Below, piece by piece: positions 17,817 through 63,766 of a stretch of DNA of 64,000 nt (position 1 is its first letter; every line of letters begins with the position of its first letter). The stretch lies in the IMG/VR virus record IMGVR_UViG_3300047323_000675. The stretch is one strand, 5' to 3'. The translations under genes were made by a program, and so were the position numbers. The notes under the pieces were generated by a model. That model ran no database searches. It worked only from the letters and a program-made list of their open reading frames with translations, and was not told the origin of the DNA. Source of the stretch: a virus.

Positions 17817-19601
17817 ATGCAAACTACTTTAACTGCTTCTCTAATTGATGATTCTCATGCTGATTTTATTAATCAGAAATTAGATCAATTTAATACTTTA
17901 TTTAATAAAACTAAAAGAAATCTTTATAAAGATATTATTAAATTCTATAGTCAAAATAATACCAATAAGCTTTCTACCTCAAAGATTAATCAATTAAAGT
18001 CTTCTTATCAAACTATTTTTTGTATTAATTCTAGACATTACAATTCTATTTTTAATGACCTTTTGGGCAATATTAATTCTATTCTTGAACTTAATAAAGA
18101 CTATATTGTTGACACTAAAGATAATATTACATCTTTGTCTAAATCATTAAAATCTAAACAATCTATTTTAGATAGTCTTGTTAAGAAAATGTCTGCAAAA
18201 AATTATATTGAGAATAATATTGATAAAACCAATAAGGATAAGTTAGTTAATAAAATTTTCTATCTTAAAAAAAGATTAAATAAAGCTAATAATAAACTAG
18301 TTAAATTATTAGATATTGAAAAATCGGGTAATCCCCATTTATGTTTTGGTTCTAAAAAGTTATTTAATCAACAATTCATGATTAATACTAAAAATAATTT
18401 AACTTCATTTAAATTCCAGGAGGATTGGAAGAAAGCTTGGATTGAATCTAGAAATAGAAATTTTATTTTTATTGGCAGTAAAGATGAAACAGCAGGTAAT
18501 TCTAACTGTCAAATAAAACATATTGAAAATGATATTTATCAGGTAACTGTTAATGTTGATCCTAAAGCTACAAAACATAAAGATAAATATATTACTTTTA
18601 ATATCAAAGTCTATAATGATAAAAATAATTATCTTTTAAATTCTATCAATAACAATTCAGAGAAAGATAAATCTAAACATCAAGCTTTAACTTATAGATT
18701 TTATAAATATAATGGTAAATATCAGGTATTTATTAGTTTAGATAAAGATAATCAACAGCCCAAGATTATTAGTCATAGATTATCTGGAGCTATTGGTATA
18801 GATATCAATTCAGATCATTTATCTGTTTCTGAAATTGATAGATTTGGTAATTTAAAGAAGACTTGGAATATTCAACTTAATCTTAAAGATAAAACTACTG
18901 AACAATCTTTAGATAATATTGCTTGTGCTGTGAAAGAAATTACAGATTATGTTGTTAAAGTAGGTAAACCAATAGTAATAGAAAAACTTAACTTTAATCA
19001 AAAGAAATCTGAATTAAAGTCAGGATTTAATAAAAAATATAATGTAATGTTATCAAGCTTCGCCTATCGTAAGATAATAGAGTTAATTAAAAGTAGATCA
19101 TTTGACAAAGGTATTGAGATTATTGAGGTTAATCCAGCTTACACTAGTAAAATAGGCAAATTTAAATATCAAAACCAATATAAATTAACAACCCATCAAG
19201 CAGCTAGCTTTGTCATAGCAAGAAGAGGTTTATTGTCTTATGAAAAATATAAAAATATCAGAACAACTAAAATAAATAAAGAAACAAAAATAAAAGCAGA
19301 AATTATAGAAAGAAAGCCTGTAACAGTAGTACATAAAGAAAAACCAATTTCTAACCGTAGGAGTAAATATTATCCTTTTGGTTTACCTGTAAGGAATAGT
19401 CAAAAACAAGATGGTATTTATTGGAAAGAAATTGAGCAGAATTATCTCAAAGCGAAAAAGCATAGAATCGTACTGAAAAGGAAGAAACTTATCCTTGGCA
19501 ATAATGGCAGTAAATTATTATCAAGAGAAACAACTGTAGTAGCTGATAACTCTGAGGTAGACCGTGACCTATCCACAAATCTATTATTTCAACCTTTTTA
19601 G
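17817..19601 (+). CDS. tnpB: TnpB-family RNA-guided nuclease-like protein, 594 aa
   Basis: RuvC-I GAIGIDIN, RuvC-II PIVIEKL, NVMLSSFAY, VNPAYTSK; RuvC-III position reads HQAASFVIARRG. Confidence 0.85.
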   Translation: MQTTLTASLIDDSHADFINQKLDQFNTLFNKTKRNLYKDIIKFYSQNNTNKLSTSKINQLKSSYQTIFCINSRHYNSIFNDLLGNINSILELNKDYIVDTKDNITSLSKSLKSKQSILDSLVKKMSAKNYIENNIDKTNKDKLVNKIFYLKKRLNKANNKLVKLLDIEKSGNPHLCFGSKKLFNQQFMINTKNNLTSFKFQEDWKKAWIESRNRNFIFIGSKDETAGNSNCQIKHIENDIYQVTVNVDPKATKHKDKYITFNIKVYNDKNNYLLNSINNNSEKDKSKHQALTYRFYKYNGKYQVFISLDKDNQQPKIISHRLSGAIGIDINSDHLSVSEIDRFGNLKKTWNIQLNLKDKTTEQSLDNIACAVKEITDYVVKVGKPIVIEKLNFNQKKSELKSGFNKKYNVMLSSFAYRKIIELIKSRSFDKGIEIIEVNPAYTSKIGKFKYQNQYKLTTHQAASFVIARRGLLSYEKYKNIRTTKINKETKIKAEIIERKPVTVVHKEKPISNRRSKYYPFGLPVRNSQKQDGIYWKEIEQNYLKAKKHRIVLKRKKLILGNNGSKLLSRETTVVADNSEVDRDLSTNLLFQPF

Positions 19602-23603: not shown

Positions 23604-24167
23604 TTATATTTTATTTTTTGGTTTATCTATAGAATTAATAGGTAATTCTTTTTTAAGAGAATTATTTAATAGGTAACTTTGAAGTTTTTTATAATATTGC
23701 TGATAATCTTCCAATAAATAAACTGCGTTTCCATTATTACTCATATTTATTTCATTTATGACTTCTTTTATATTATCTTGTAATTGATAATCTCTGAATT
23801 CAAAAATCTTTTTATTTTTATAAAGAATATCAAGCCCAATATTCATTAAATCATTAAATACCTTTTCTTTTTCTTGAATAATACTAAGATTATAAACATG
23901 ATATATTGTGTTTTGAAAGAAGCGTTCGCTAAATCCATTAGCAATGTTAAAAAACTTAAGATATCCTTCTCCATTGTTTTCAATAGTTTGATCTATCAAA
24001 GATGCTGCAACTAAATAACTAAGATAATCTTTACTATTACTACCTAATGATGTATTAAATTCTGTAAATTTTTTATTAATACATTGATATATAAATATAC
24101 TTTCAACTTTTTTAAAATCATCTTTGGTAAGATAATCTTGAAATTCAAATAGTTCAAATGCTTTCAT
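23604..24167 (-). CDS. hypothetical protein (non-ankyrin) carrying the family C-terminal module
   Basis: No ACxxG repeats; ends YLLNNSLKKELPINSIDKPKNKI. Confidence 0.8.
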   Translation of the reverse strand: MKAFELFEFQDYLTKDDFKKVESIFIYQCINKKFTEFNTSLGSNSKDYLSYLVAASLIDQTIENNGEGYLKFFNIANGFSERFFQNTIYHVYNLSIIQEKEKVFNDLMNIGLDILYKNKKIFEFRDYQLQDNIKEVINEINMSNNGNAVYLLEDYQQYYKKLQSYLLNNSLKKELPINSIDKPKNKI

Positions 24168-25651
24168 ATTTTTAACCTTTTTGTATTGTTAGATGTATTA
24201 TGTCCTAAATCATTATTTAATTCGGCATATTCTAATGCTTTCTCCATTTTTAAAACACTTTGTTGTTGCTCTGGACTTAAGTAATTATTATATATAGAAT
24301 CAGTTTTTATTAATTTAATAAGTATTTCACCTGGCATAATTTTTTTATTATTTGGACTAATTAGCACTTCAATATCATTATTAACTAAGAATTGAGCAAT
24401 ATTAAACATTGCCTTACCATTACTACTATTATTTTGTGTTTTAATAATTTTTTCAAAGAAATTTGCTAAATAATGTGCGAAATTATTTCCTTCTTCGTCT
24501 TTAATTTGCCAATCAATATATTTTTTTTCTGACAGCTTTATTATTGTACTTTCTATTTCAGTTGTTTTACCTAAGCAAAATAAAGAGCAAACTGAAGAAT
24601 ATATTTTCAGATTATTTAACTCCTTATTTGTTTGATACCATTGATTAAGTATTGATGTATTATAATGAAATTTTTTTATAGCATTATTTTCTAAAAAAAC
24701 TTCAGAATTAGTTGAGTTTTTCATATCTCTATATACTTCATCTTTAATCTCTGAAACACTCCAAGAGTCACGAGCAGTCATAACAATATTCTGTTCTGTG
24801 ATTGGTTTAGCATTATAGTAAAGCTCAAAATCCTTCCAATTATTATTATGAAGGCAATAAGCCATCATTAATTCTTGAAAATTTTTGGAAATGGAATCAT
24901 TTTGAATATTTCTAACTAAAAAATCATTTAAAGTGCTATGTAATAAAGTGTCTGTTCCAAGTTCTTTACTAAATCTATCAAAAAAATTTAAATTTTTATT
25001 ATCATTAATTTTTAGATTAACTCTAGAAAAAAATGATAATAAGAAATTTTTAACTAATTTTTTTTCTTCTATTTTTTCTAGATATATTTTAGCAAACTCG
25101 TTAGATTTATTTGAATATATGGAATCAAAAATTGGCATATTATTTACCATATATAACGGATTATCTAATTTATCTAACAGTTTTTTTGCCAAATTTACTC
25201 TGCCTTTAATTCCAAAACGAGCAGCACAATGTTCTATTTGTTCTTTATCATTCAATAAATCCGTAGTTGTTTTTCCTGGGAAAAATTTTGCACATATCTC
25301 ATTCATTGTATTCAATATTTGATTATTTTTTATGTAATAAAACGCACACTGTACACCCATAGATGGTATTTCTGGTTTTATAAATAACCTTTCAAAATAA
25401 TAACTTGCTGAACGAGTGTTATCAAAAAATTCCTTAAAGCAAGCGGAAGCACCATATTCTATACAAGCTTTTAATGTGCAATCTAATTGAATATGAGGAT
25501 ATCTATCTAAATAAGCTTTAAAGGCATCTGGTTTATCATAAAAGAAAATTAAATCTAATGACTTAGGTATATAGGATAAATATTTATGTTCAGATGGAAC
25601 TGTTAATCCCAATTTTTGAGTGAATTGTTTTTCTTCAAAAGACATGTACAT
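24164..25651 (-). CDS. 495-aa helical hypothetical protein carrying the family C-terminal module
   Basis: No 35-aa repeats (only a weak ankyrin-like DEEGNNFAHYLA); ends YAELNNDLGHNTSNNTKRLKI. Confidence 0.8.
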   Translation of the reverse strand: MYMSFEEKQFTQKLGLTVPSEHKYLSYIPKSLDLIFFYDKPDAFKAYLDRYPHIQLDCTLKACIEYGASACFKEFFDNTRSASYYFERLFIKPEIPSMGVQCAFYYIKNNQILNTMNEICAKFFPGKTTTDLLNDKEQIEHCAARFGIKGRVNLAKKLLDKLDNPLYMVNNMPIFDSIYSNKSNEFAKIYLEKIEEKKLVKNFLLSFFSRVNLKINDNKNLNFFDRFSKELGTDTLLHSTLNDFLVRNIQNDSISKNFQELMMAYCLHNNNWKDFELYYNAKPITEQNIVMTARDSWSVSEIKDEVYRDMKNSTNSEVFLENNAIKKFHYNTSILNQWYQTNKELNNLKIYSSVCSLFCLGKTTEIESTIIKLSEKKYIDWQIKDEEGNNFAHYLANFFEKIIKTQNNSSNGKAMFNIAQFLVNNDIEVLISPNNKKIMPGEILIKLIKTDSIYNNYLSPEQQQSVLKMEKALEYAELNNDLGHNTSNNTKRLKI

Positions 25652-26387: not shown

Positions 26388-27938
26388 TTAAATCTTTATT
26401 TTTGCTTTTTTATTAAATTCATTATCGGTAGAAAAACTATATTCTACTAAATTATGTAATGTTTGCTTATATAAAATTTTCTGACTACGAGTTAACTTAG
26501 GGAAAAATATTCCATATGTTTTATTTTTTAATGTAGTTGCTCTATTAATACTTTGGACATGTCTAGCAAGTATTTCAGGAGTTTCAGTCCAATATCCCAG
26601 ATTAATATTTTTTTCATTAGCATGTTTAATTATTGTTTTCATATAAGGCGAAGTTCCAAAAAAGCCTCTACTTCCTTTAAATGGATTATTTAAATTACAG
26701 AAATTATTTTCTTCCAACCATTCTTTTAAAATTTTGCTAATTTTTTCTTTTGCTAAATTTTTATTATTTTGTATAGACTGAAGTTGTTCCTCATTTAACT
26801 TTAATGAAGAAATAAGACTCTTGAGTATATTGCTTGTTGGGGAAAAAAATGATTCCATATTAGCATTGATCATAGTAATGCCAGTTAACGCATAATATTT
26901 AAAATGATCTTTGATACTAGATACTAATTTTTCTTTTTTTTCAGAATCAAGATTATCTAGTTTAGATTTCAAATCACCTAATAATGAGGATAAAATTATC
27001 TCAGTAGAAGAATCAAAAAATAAAGATGATTTAGCTTCATAATTTTGAGAGATTTCTATTATTGACTCATCACTAACCATTTTAACTATAGTTTCTTGAA
27101 AATTATTTAAAAATTTATTGTTAAGTTTATTAATGTTAATATTATCTTTAAATAAATCCATTAATACAAAGCTAGATAAATAACCGTTTTCAAATGCTAA
27201 ATTTCTTTCTTTTGATGGCACAGAATACAATTTATTAAATGCAAGATGATCAAAAATATGTGTATATTCATGAATGAGTGACTCTAAAAACCAATATGGC
27301 TTATTAGGCTTTACTGTAAGAGTAAAATAACCATCATCATTATCTAGGCATGCTCCTTGTGACTCATTTGGAGTAAGCAAAGATGTACAATGTAGAGTCA
27401 ACTTACCATTTAAATTAATTTTTTCTTTTGATAGATTGAAATCTTTCATAAATTTAGTTAAAGATTTTCTTGTAAGTTTCGCCCAATAACTTACCTTATC
27501 CCAATTATCTGTTTTATGGATAATTATTGTTTGAAGATTAAAATCGTTTTTTAATTTATCAACTAAATTTATTGCGATATTTTTATCGCCTTTTAAAGAA
27601 ATAGGCTCATAATTTTTTATAGGGTTTTTCAATATTTTTTCTATTTCTATTTTAAGTACATTCATAATATTATTGTTTATAATATCCAATGTTCTTAAGT
27701 TATCAGAGACTTTCTGATTTTCTTCCTGAATATATATTTTTACATTTTTTCTAGTTTTTGATATACTCTTTTTAATTATCTTTAGATCCTCAATATTTTC
27801 TAAATTATCTAAGTTTGATTTCCATAAAGAAATTATTTCTTTGAAAAATAAATTGCAATTTGGAGAGCCAGAAATATAAATATCAAAAAAATCATCAATG
27901 AATGATTTTAAATAATTAATTTTTTCTTGAGTTATCAT
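26388..27938 (-). CDS. zincin-like metallopeptidase, LPD1 (large polyvalent protein domain 1)-like, with basic tail
   Basis: INLNGKLTL, LIHEYTHIFDH (HExxH) and YWTETPEILAR resemble LPD1 motifs (recognised from memory, no search run); ends KAKIKI. Confidence 0.65.
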   Translation of the reverse strand: MITQEKINYLKSFIDDFFDIYISGSPNCNLFFKEIISLWKSNLDNLENIEDLKIIKKSISKTRKNVKIYIQEENQKVSDNLRTLDIINNNIMNVLKIEIEKILKNPIKNYEPISLKGDKNIAINLVDKLKNDFNLQTIIIHKTDNWDKVSYWAKLTRKSLTKFMKDFNLSKEKINLNGKLTLHCTSLLTPNESQGACLDNDDGYFTLTVKPNKPYWFLESLIHEYTHIFDHLAFNKLYSVPSKERNLAFENGYLSSFVLMDLFKDNININKLNNKFLNNFQETIVKMVSDESIIEISQNYEAKSSLFFDSSTEIILSSLLGDLKSKLDNLDSEKKEKLVSSIKDHFKYYALTGITMINANMESFFSPTSNILKSLISSLKLNEEQLQSIQNNKNLAKEKISKILKEWLEENNFCNLNNPFKGSRGFFGTSPYMKTIIKHANEKNINLGYWTETPEILARHVQSINRATTLKNKTYGIFFPKLTRSQKILYKQTLHNLVEYSFSTDNEFNKKAKIKI

Positions 27939-62947: not shown

Positions 62948-62972
62948 AAAAAAAGCCCATGAAGGGCTTTTT
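62948..62972 (-). terminator. intrinsic terminator of infC
   Basis: aaaaagccc-ttcat-gggc followed by a T-run on the minus strand. Confidence 0.88.
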
Positions 62973-62974
62973 GT

Positions 62975-63561
62975 GATTAACAACGAAAACGAATTGATTA
63001 GGGTTTAACCTTTTGGGCTGGTTTTTTTGCAGGCTTAAGAATGAAGTTCATATCTCTGCCACCAAAACTAACCTTGCCATCCAATGCACCAACATCTTCA
63101 ACAGTAGCAAGAATTTTATCAATAAATTCTTTGTTGAGATCTTGCATGGTGCTTTCTCTATAGCTCTTGAATTTGATAACAACTTTAACTTTATGATTAT
63201 CATTTAAGAATTCGGCTACTTTTTTAGCCTTTAAGTTAAAATCGTTATCACCAATAACAGGGCGGAAGCTCATGCTTTTCATTTCTTGGCTACGATTTTT
63301 AAAGTCTTGTTTTTCACGCTTTTTCTTCTCGTGATATAGCCATGACTCGTAATTCAAGATTTTGCAAATAGCCATAGTTTGATTCATGCCAACTTGCATC
63401 AAATCCAACTCTTGTTCATATGCTTTTTCTAATGCCTCTTTTAAAGAAAACTGACCAAGCTTATTGCCTTCTGTATCCAAAAGCATCACCGATGATGCCT
63501 TTATTTCCTCATTTACTAAATGTTCTTTTTCCAAGTTTTTTTTCTCCATTCGTTGTTAATC
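62975..63561. repeat. perfect 13-bp inverted repeat flanking infC
   Basis: gattaacaacgaa at 62975-62987 and its reverse complement ttcgttgttaatc at 63549-63561. Confidence 0.9.
62998..63549 (-). CDS. infC: translation initiation factor IF-3 (divergent, stand-alone)
   Basis: VNEEI, ICKILNY, SFRPVIGDNDFNLK, FLNDNHKVKVVIKF, GRDMNFILKP match IF-3 N- and C-domains; ATG start with in-frame TAA 9 nt upstream. Confidence 0.9.
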   Translation of the reverse strand: MEKKNLEKEHLVNEEIKASSVMLLDTEGNKLGQFSLKEALEKAYEQELDLMQVGMNQTMAICKILNYESWLYHEKKKREKQDFKNRSQEMKSMSFRPVIGDNDFNLKAKKVAEFLNDNHKVKVVIKFKSYRESTMQDLNKEFIDKILATVEDVGALDGKVSFGGRDMNFILKPAKKPAQKVKP

Positions 63562-63567
63562 GTTAAA

Positions 63568-63576
63568 ATTATACCA
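63568..63576 (-). promoter_or_regulatory. extended -10 promoter element of infC (TGGTATAAT)
   Basis: TGnTATAAT predicts a transcription start near 63561. Confidence 0.55.
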
Positions 63577-63766
63577 CATTTTAAAAAAATTCAATAGTTT
63601 TAATTATTTTTATATCAAATTTTTAAGTTTTTGTTGTTCATTACCTATTATATATCTATTTACATATTAAATTCCATTTATAGATTTATTAATAACATGT
63701 ATTAGAAGTAATTAAAAGTATAATTTAACATTAACAAATTGAAAAAATTCGTTAATAAAAAATACA

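Follow-up and report, generated by a model that had tools for sequence, protein, structure and literature searches.

A covarying leader/3′-UTR helix predicted to join the ends of the mRNA of a divergent infC-like gene in uncultured lineages

The 64-kb stretch of DNA analysed here, which we refer to as the window, has a GC content of 25% and carries bacterial signals, namely Shine-Dalgarno (SD) sequences, extended −10 promoters and intrinsic terminators. Its minus strand is occupied from 1 to 61822 by ~80 consecutive genes of 160-340 aa, many of them with 4-nt stop/start overlaps, and nine ankyrin-repeat proteins were found among the genes sampled from this array. Larger non-ankyrin ORFs lie within it at 24164-25651 and 26388-27938, and the ankyrin array is interrupted at 17817-19601 by a 594-aa ORF on the plus strand, one of two plus-strand ORFs of at least 150 aa; its weak match to a Cas12f1-like TNB (TnpB-type) family (E 0.009) was below the cut-off. 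Searches for tRNAs and Rfam families gave no match in the 64-kb window, and the Rfam search, at gathering thresholds, covered the L20 leader. The minus strand also carries a divergent infC-like gene for translation initiation factor IF-3, with the following features:

63594-63589, minus strand: −35-like TTGAAT, with a 15-nt spacer to the −10 element
63576-63568, minus strand: extended −10 promoter element TGgTATAAT, read directly in the sequence
63561-63549, minus strand: 5′ helix arm GATTAACAACGAA, beginning at the predicted +1 and ending 1 nt short of the SD
63549-63547, minus strand: in-frame ATG that overlaps GGAG and is probably not the start
63547-63544, minus strand: Shine-Dalgarno GGAG, invariant among homologous loci
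63534-63532, minus strand: TTG start, nine bases past GGAG
63534-62998, minus strand: IF-3 (infC-like) coding sequence, TTG start, 178 aa plus stop, divergent
63000-62998, minus strand: TAA stop
62987-62975, minus strand: 3′ helix arm, +11 to +23 past the stop, separated from the terminator stem by 2 nt
62972-62943, minus strand: intrinsic terminator, its 9-bp stem (4 G-C pairs) capped by a 5-nt loop and followed by a U tract, the hairpin itself at 62972-62950

The infC-like gene is predicted from sequence to be monocistronic, flanked by a promoter and a terminator of its own. Transcription is predicted from the extended −10 element to begin at ~63561 (+1), and the spacing of TGnTATAAT to GGAG is identical in 11 of 12 homologous lineages; a simple promoter scan missed the promoter at 63576-63568 because its spacer is 15 nt. 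Most lineages also share a conserved (T)ATTG(T/C/A)A(A/T) motif 15 nt 5′ of the TATAAT hexamer (63589-63597 in the window), which is either a short-spacer −35 element or a regulator site. The protein matches both IF-3 domains, PF05198 (IF3_N) with 71.4 bits and PF00707 (IF3_C) with 70.7 bits, both scores exceeding the curated cut-offs, and belongs to IF-3 by its score against TIGR00168, the infC equivalog model, a modest 132.7 bits (cut-off 60). The locus itself is not that of a canonical infC gene, having neither an AUU-type start nor an infC-rpmI-rplT context.

The window protein falls in a tight family of ~34 cluster representatives, all metagenomic and 53-91% identical. The nearest proteins outside the family are ordinary IF-3s at ~35% identity or less, and identity to any named IF-3 is only about 30-35%, the family forming a long branch in the IF-3 tree. 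No member turned up when GTDB species genomes and IMG/VR were scanned for the family, and phage and plasmid collections yielded only IF-3 genes at 29-35% identity. Contigs carrying a family member reach 2.2-2.3 Mb in length, and the label of one record reads 'archaeon'. For comparison we used 22 distinct loci together with their flanks. Gene order is conserved: an ankyrin gene is followed by genes of ~92, ~300, 61 and 97 aa and then infC, with a glycine-zipper lipoprotein gene on the opposite strand, and the orientation of infC relative to the upstream 61-aa and 97-aa genes is identical in 22/22 loci from many samples. The neighbours of infC are orphan genes, the glycine-zipper lipoprotein gene and ankyrin genes. 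The 134-aa gene downstream in the window has no family; no rpmI- or rplT-like gene was found among the downstream neighbours examined, of which those with a family match were glycine-zipper lipoproteins. The greater part of the neighbouring genes match no Pfam family; at one locus, L072 (1-20537), 7 of the 26 called genes across 20 kb have one.

The start codon of the gene bears directly on what its leader is. The earlier note had given the leader as "GAUUAACAACGA-AUG"; its +1 at ~63561 agrees with our prediction, but the AUG does not end the leader, the conserved start being the TTG at 63534-63532. In 22/22 loci GGAG is followed at 6-9 nt by TTG or GTG, the latter only in L004, and the entire IF-3 family starts with UUG (GUG once) behind a strong GGAG, AUU being used by no member. 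The ATG, by comparison, lies outside the reading frame in L001, L007, L070 and L011, and its position is taken by ACG, CTG, TCG or TAG in L063, L065, L003, L005, L008, L009, L066, L010, L004 and L072. A cluster member at least 90% identical to the window protein is recorded at 178 aa, the length counted from TTG. By this comparison, the window ATG appears to be merely SD context (A/C-T/C-GGAG). Since UUG is the conserved start, the leader is ~27 nt long with a strong SD, and the stem described below comprises its first 13 nt and does not reach the UUG.

The 13-nt perfect complementarity that the earlier note had pointed out between 63561-63549 and 62987-62975 (minus strand), just ahead of the terminator, is present. 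The exact pair of GATTAACAACGAA occurs once in the 64-kb window, and the 3′ arm begins 10 nt past TAA. The window contains 10 perfect inverted repeats with arms of 13 nt or longer and a spacing of 50-1000 bp, against 9.6 expected from order-2 Markov simulations, so that the repeat alone is not beyond chance and the case rests on its position and on the comparison of homologues. The duplex of the window leader with the 3′ UTR has a predicted energy of −17.4 kcal/mol, a strength that none of 1000 shuffled 3′ UTRs attained. The 3′ UTR also contains a tandem TTCGTT-TTCGTT (62981-62992, minus strand), and with the upstream TTCGTT copy the leader would also be able to pair in a second register (AUUCGUU with AACGAAU), up to the U before GGAG, a possible alternative conformer.

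Folding of the predicted 618-nt transcript places the helix, spanning about 560 nt, in both the MFE and the centroid structures, with a z-score of −4.7. In this full-length fold the window leader pairs with the 3′ UTR with a mean probability of 0.93, the terminator still folds as a hairpin, a single SD nucleotide is paired and the UUG is essentially unpaired. The mean probability of leader/3′-UTR pairing is 0.62-0.94 in nine loci and 0.03-0.42 in loci without the duplex. The proposal that end pairing masks the start codon does not survive this analysis, since the conserved UUG and the SD lie outside the window stem; the suggestion that translation would be limited to nascent mRNA falls with it, the UUG (GUG once among 22 loci) being outside the stem and the ATG not being a conserved start.

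A leader/3′-UTR duplex is found at the same place in about eight metagenomic lineages of the IF-3 family. Across the family, the 5′ arm begins 5-10 nt past TGnTATAAT and ends 1-2 nt ahead of GGAG, the 3′ arm lies 5-13 nt past the stop and always ahead of the terminator, and the helix is 11-15 bp long. The RNase III stem envisaged in the earlier note would be a helix of only this length. When the 20 nt preceding GGAG were tested against the 45 nt past the stop, cognate duplexes of −11 to −19 kcal/mol were obtained for the window, L001, L058, L059, L002/L061, L060, L063, L065 and L003. L008 gave −9.7 kcal/mol, and L070 gave −9.4 kcal/mol with a leader ending at the first SD G and −18.0 kcal/mol (p 0.003) with the full leader. 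Compared with shuffled 3′ UTRs, the cognate duplexes reached p ≤0.007 (21-nt leader). Nine other family loci showed no duplex (−0.1 to −6.5 kcal/mol). The helix is absent from roughly half of the family (L004, L005, L007, L009, L010, L011, L012, L066, L071 and L072) and is therefore dispensable; its gains and losses cannot be ordered because the IF-3 tree has no resolution inside the family. Weak leader/3′-UTR matches in L069, L007 and L072 were judged to be chance (p 0.03-0.23, and 0.16-0.49 in another run), as were other repeats in L005, L009 and L012. At L066-L068 (2037-2052) the terminator and 3′ UTR are gone, a 344-aa gene begins 14 nt past the infC stop and the leader has lost all complementarity; here, loss of the helix accompanies loss of monocistronic status.

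The arm sequences vary by lineage (…TTGACAATGA…, …TAACTACACA…, …TTAAACAACAC…, …TCATTTTATGGAG…), each being complementary to its own partner, and an SD-anchored table shows 2-4 Watson-Crick pair types per position from −15 to −2. Covariation was scored on A3, a MAFFT full-transcript alignment that was not fitted to the structure and that was taken over an earlier MAFFT alignment, A2, in which the UTRs of L065, L060 and L003 were mis-registered. On A3, 93.3% of the cells of the window's 13 pairs are paired and 9 of the 13 pairs show two-sided change, although the lineages are related and counts of compensated cells overstate the independent events. The covariation score is 0.459, compared with 0.181 ± 0.037 for shuffled alignments (0/500 as high), and shifting the partner by 1-3 columns leaves 27-52% paired with 0-1 compensated pairs. 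Swapping partners among nine lineages tells the same arms apart by energy: the cognate pairings sum to −128.2 kcal/mol versus −57.7 ± 8.2 kcal/mol (minimum −93) for the swapped ones, and 0 of 73,527 derangements matched the cognate sum. Flank duplexes computed for 221 ORFs of the same loci have a mean of −6.2 and an SD of 3.1, with the infC genes in the extreme tail; the end-to-end helix is infC-specific and no genome-wide habit. The pairing first noticed in the window is thus borne out by covarying 5′/3′ pairs around homologous infC genes, with compensatory changes in about eight lineages. Judged from these homologues, the end-to-end complementarity of infC is real and under selection.

We propose, with a probability of about 0.6, that the monocistronic infC mRNA forms an 11-15 bp leader/3′-UTR helix of the hbs type that ties its ends together and shelters complete transcripts. 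One strand would take up nearly all of the leader, beginning at the predicted +1 and ending 1-2 nt short of GGAG, and the other would lie 5-13 nt past the stop, right ahead of the intrinsic terminator. The finished transcript would close into a loop in which the paired 5′ terminus sits beside the terminator hairpin and the SD and UUG are left free. RppH, RNase E and RNase J act in 5′-end-dependent decay, and pairing of the very 5′ end should hinder decay of this kind. The helix would put the single-stranded, AU-rich leader, together with the 5′ end, out of reach of both 5′-end-dependent and endonucleolytic RNases, as its counterpart in hbs leads us to infer, and would set the lifetime of complete transcripts.

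The hbs mRNA of Bacillus subtilis provides the closest precedent. There, a 14-nt stretch of its 5′ UTR, in the interval between hairpin hp2 and the SD, is fully complementary (−19 kcal/mol) to a stretch upstream of the terminator (PMC5737220), and the pairing, proven in vivo by compensatory mutants, restricts cleavage of the leader by RNase Y (PMC5737220, Braun, Durand & Condon 2017). The two helices are alike in size and predicted stability (14 bp and −19 kcal/mol in hbs, 13 bp and −17.4 kcal/mol in the window infC) and in geometry, the 5′ strand lying ahead of a strong SD and the 3′ strand just ahead of a Rho-independent terminator in small monocistronic mRNAs. They differ in that the hbs 5′ strand follows two 5′ hairpins in a long leader, whereas the infC strand makes up the entire short leader from the predicted +1. 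They differ also in that the infC helix is found on the gene of an IF-3 homologue and its evidence is covariation in uncultured lineages rather than mutants. By analogy with hbs, protection against decay is most likely the main role of the helix.

Translational repression as the main role, in which the 3′ UTR would block the ribosome binding site as in the earlier note's model or as in icaR, is in our estimate unlikely. In the icaR mRNA of Staphylococcus aureus, a UCCCC in the long 3′ UTR pairs with the SD, blocks initiation and makes a substrate for RNase III (PMC3868564, Ruiz de los Mozos et al. 2013). As in icaR, a 3′ UTR of infC pairs with the 5′ UTR of its own mRNA, and the stem ends 1-2 nt from the SD, within the usual 30S footprint. 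L070 comes closest: there alone CUCC pairs with the whole GGAG in a 13-bp duplex, and the duplexes of L058 and L059 enter the SD partly. In L070, a 61% identical relative, the duplex (1480-1500 / 2039-2053) is shifted 3′ so that CUCCAU pairs with AUGGAG. The SD is, however, left free in the window, as it is in the majority of lineages, an anti-SD lying inside the duplex only in L070. The window stem stops before GGAG, with no icaR-type pairing of the SD by the 3′ UTR. The 3′ UTR pairs with no more than one nucleotide of the SD, and with none of the UUG, in the window and in L001, L063 and L003. The conserved core of the helix is the pre-SD leader, and the ATG supposed to be masked is not the conserved start. 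The full, icaR-like anti-SD of L070 suggests a divergence of function among family members, and where pairing enters the SD (L070, and partly L058 and L059) the helix may damp initiation as well.

In a different arrangement, the 3′ arm and terminator would be freed as a 3′-UTR-derived sRNA whose seed pairs with other infC leaders in trans. In 3′-UTR-derived sRNAs, the seed is found directly ahead of a Rho-independent terminator with a U tail, and the segment at 62987-62943 has this layout; covariation, moreover, fits cis and trans pairing equally. Neither a processing site nor an internal promoter is evident, however, and pairing in cis is kinetically favoured, with a predicted probability of about 0.9, which together make release of a trans-acting sRNA improbable.

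The arms could also act as a DNA inverted repeat, either as the recombination sites at which an infC segment could invert or as two operator copies through which one protein loops the gene. Watson-Crick covariation alone cannot tell RNA pairing from a DNA inverted repeat and is compatible with this reading, as are the strand-symmetric energies in L003 and L061; the 5′ arm overlaps the predicted +1, a common position for a repressor, and the repeats bracket the whole ORF. One-sided changes give a sense-strand G·U in five cases (L058, L059, L063, L070 and L003) versus an A·C in one (L003), and the energies are split, the sense strand being better in L058, L059, L063 and L070 and the antisense strand in L003 and L061. 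Against inversion, the single infC orientation holds in 22/22 loci, and no recombinase or transposase family was detected among the called neighbours within 1.5-3 kb (10 kb in L072), so that neither mark of an inverton, a recombinase nearby or the presence of both orientations, was seen in the 22 loci. Against operators, the arms are not palindromic half-sites and their sequences change between lineages. Both arms, furthermore, always lie within the predicted transcript, and several of the pairs are G·U on the sense strand. Pairing at the RNA level is favoured by these asymmetries of placement and of strand, none of them statistically decisive, and a role of the arms as DNA sites is in our judgement quite improbable.

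An additional function that the helix might have, which we regard as a long shot, is to close a loop in which ribosomes at the stop side re-initiate on the same IF-3 mRNA, re-initiation falling as IF-3 rises. IF-3 strips 30S subunits off mRNA after recycling. The closed loop would place the stop ~10 nt from one end of the helix and the SD 1-2 nt from that same end. This geometry agrees with the start of the 3′ arm in the window clade, at +10 or +11, just clear of the region that a ribosome covers at termination. If true, closed-loop re-initiation would be a new autoregulatory circuit in place of AUU discrimination. Lastly, a chance inverted repeat in AT-rich DNA would agree with the near-expected number of such repeats in the window, yet the position is kept with compensatory changes in about eight lineages, and the SD-anchored pair table, the partner-swap permutation and the alignment shuffles rule it out, leaving it a next to negligible likelihood.

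The proposed helix sits on a gene that departs from known infC control. Canonical infC is autoregulated through its AUU start and lies in an infC-rpmI-rplT operon controlled by L20 through an L20 leader. The product described here resembles canonical infC in having both IF-3 domains; its gene differs in its UUG start, in having no rpmI/rplT-like downstream neighbour and in the absence of an L20 leader match in the window. UUG is a class I start codon, against which IF-3 does not discriminate. For the earlier idea that the helix replaces AUU autoregulation we found no evidence.

To our knowledge, hbs and icaR are the characterised bacterial cases of end-to-end pairing, each established by mutation in a single species, and our literature search did not bring up an infC helix of this sort. 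On the comparative evidence, the infC helix appears to be a third case, with the geometry of hbs, in the small class of bacterial 5′/3′-UTR interactions. Its phylogenetic covariation shows that end-to-end mRNA helices can face long-term selection. A recipe for finding more such mRNAs follows from its layout, namely a comparison of the leader from +1 to the SD with the stretch ahead of the terminator. Since the gene concerned encodes a translation initiation factor and lacks both classical controls, AUU and L20, the helix points to another means by which IF-3 expression could be set in this family.
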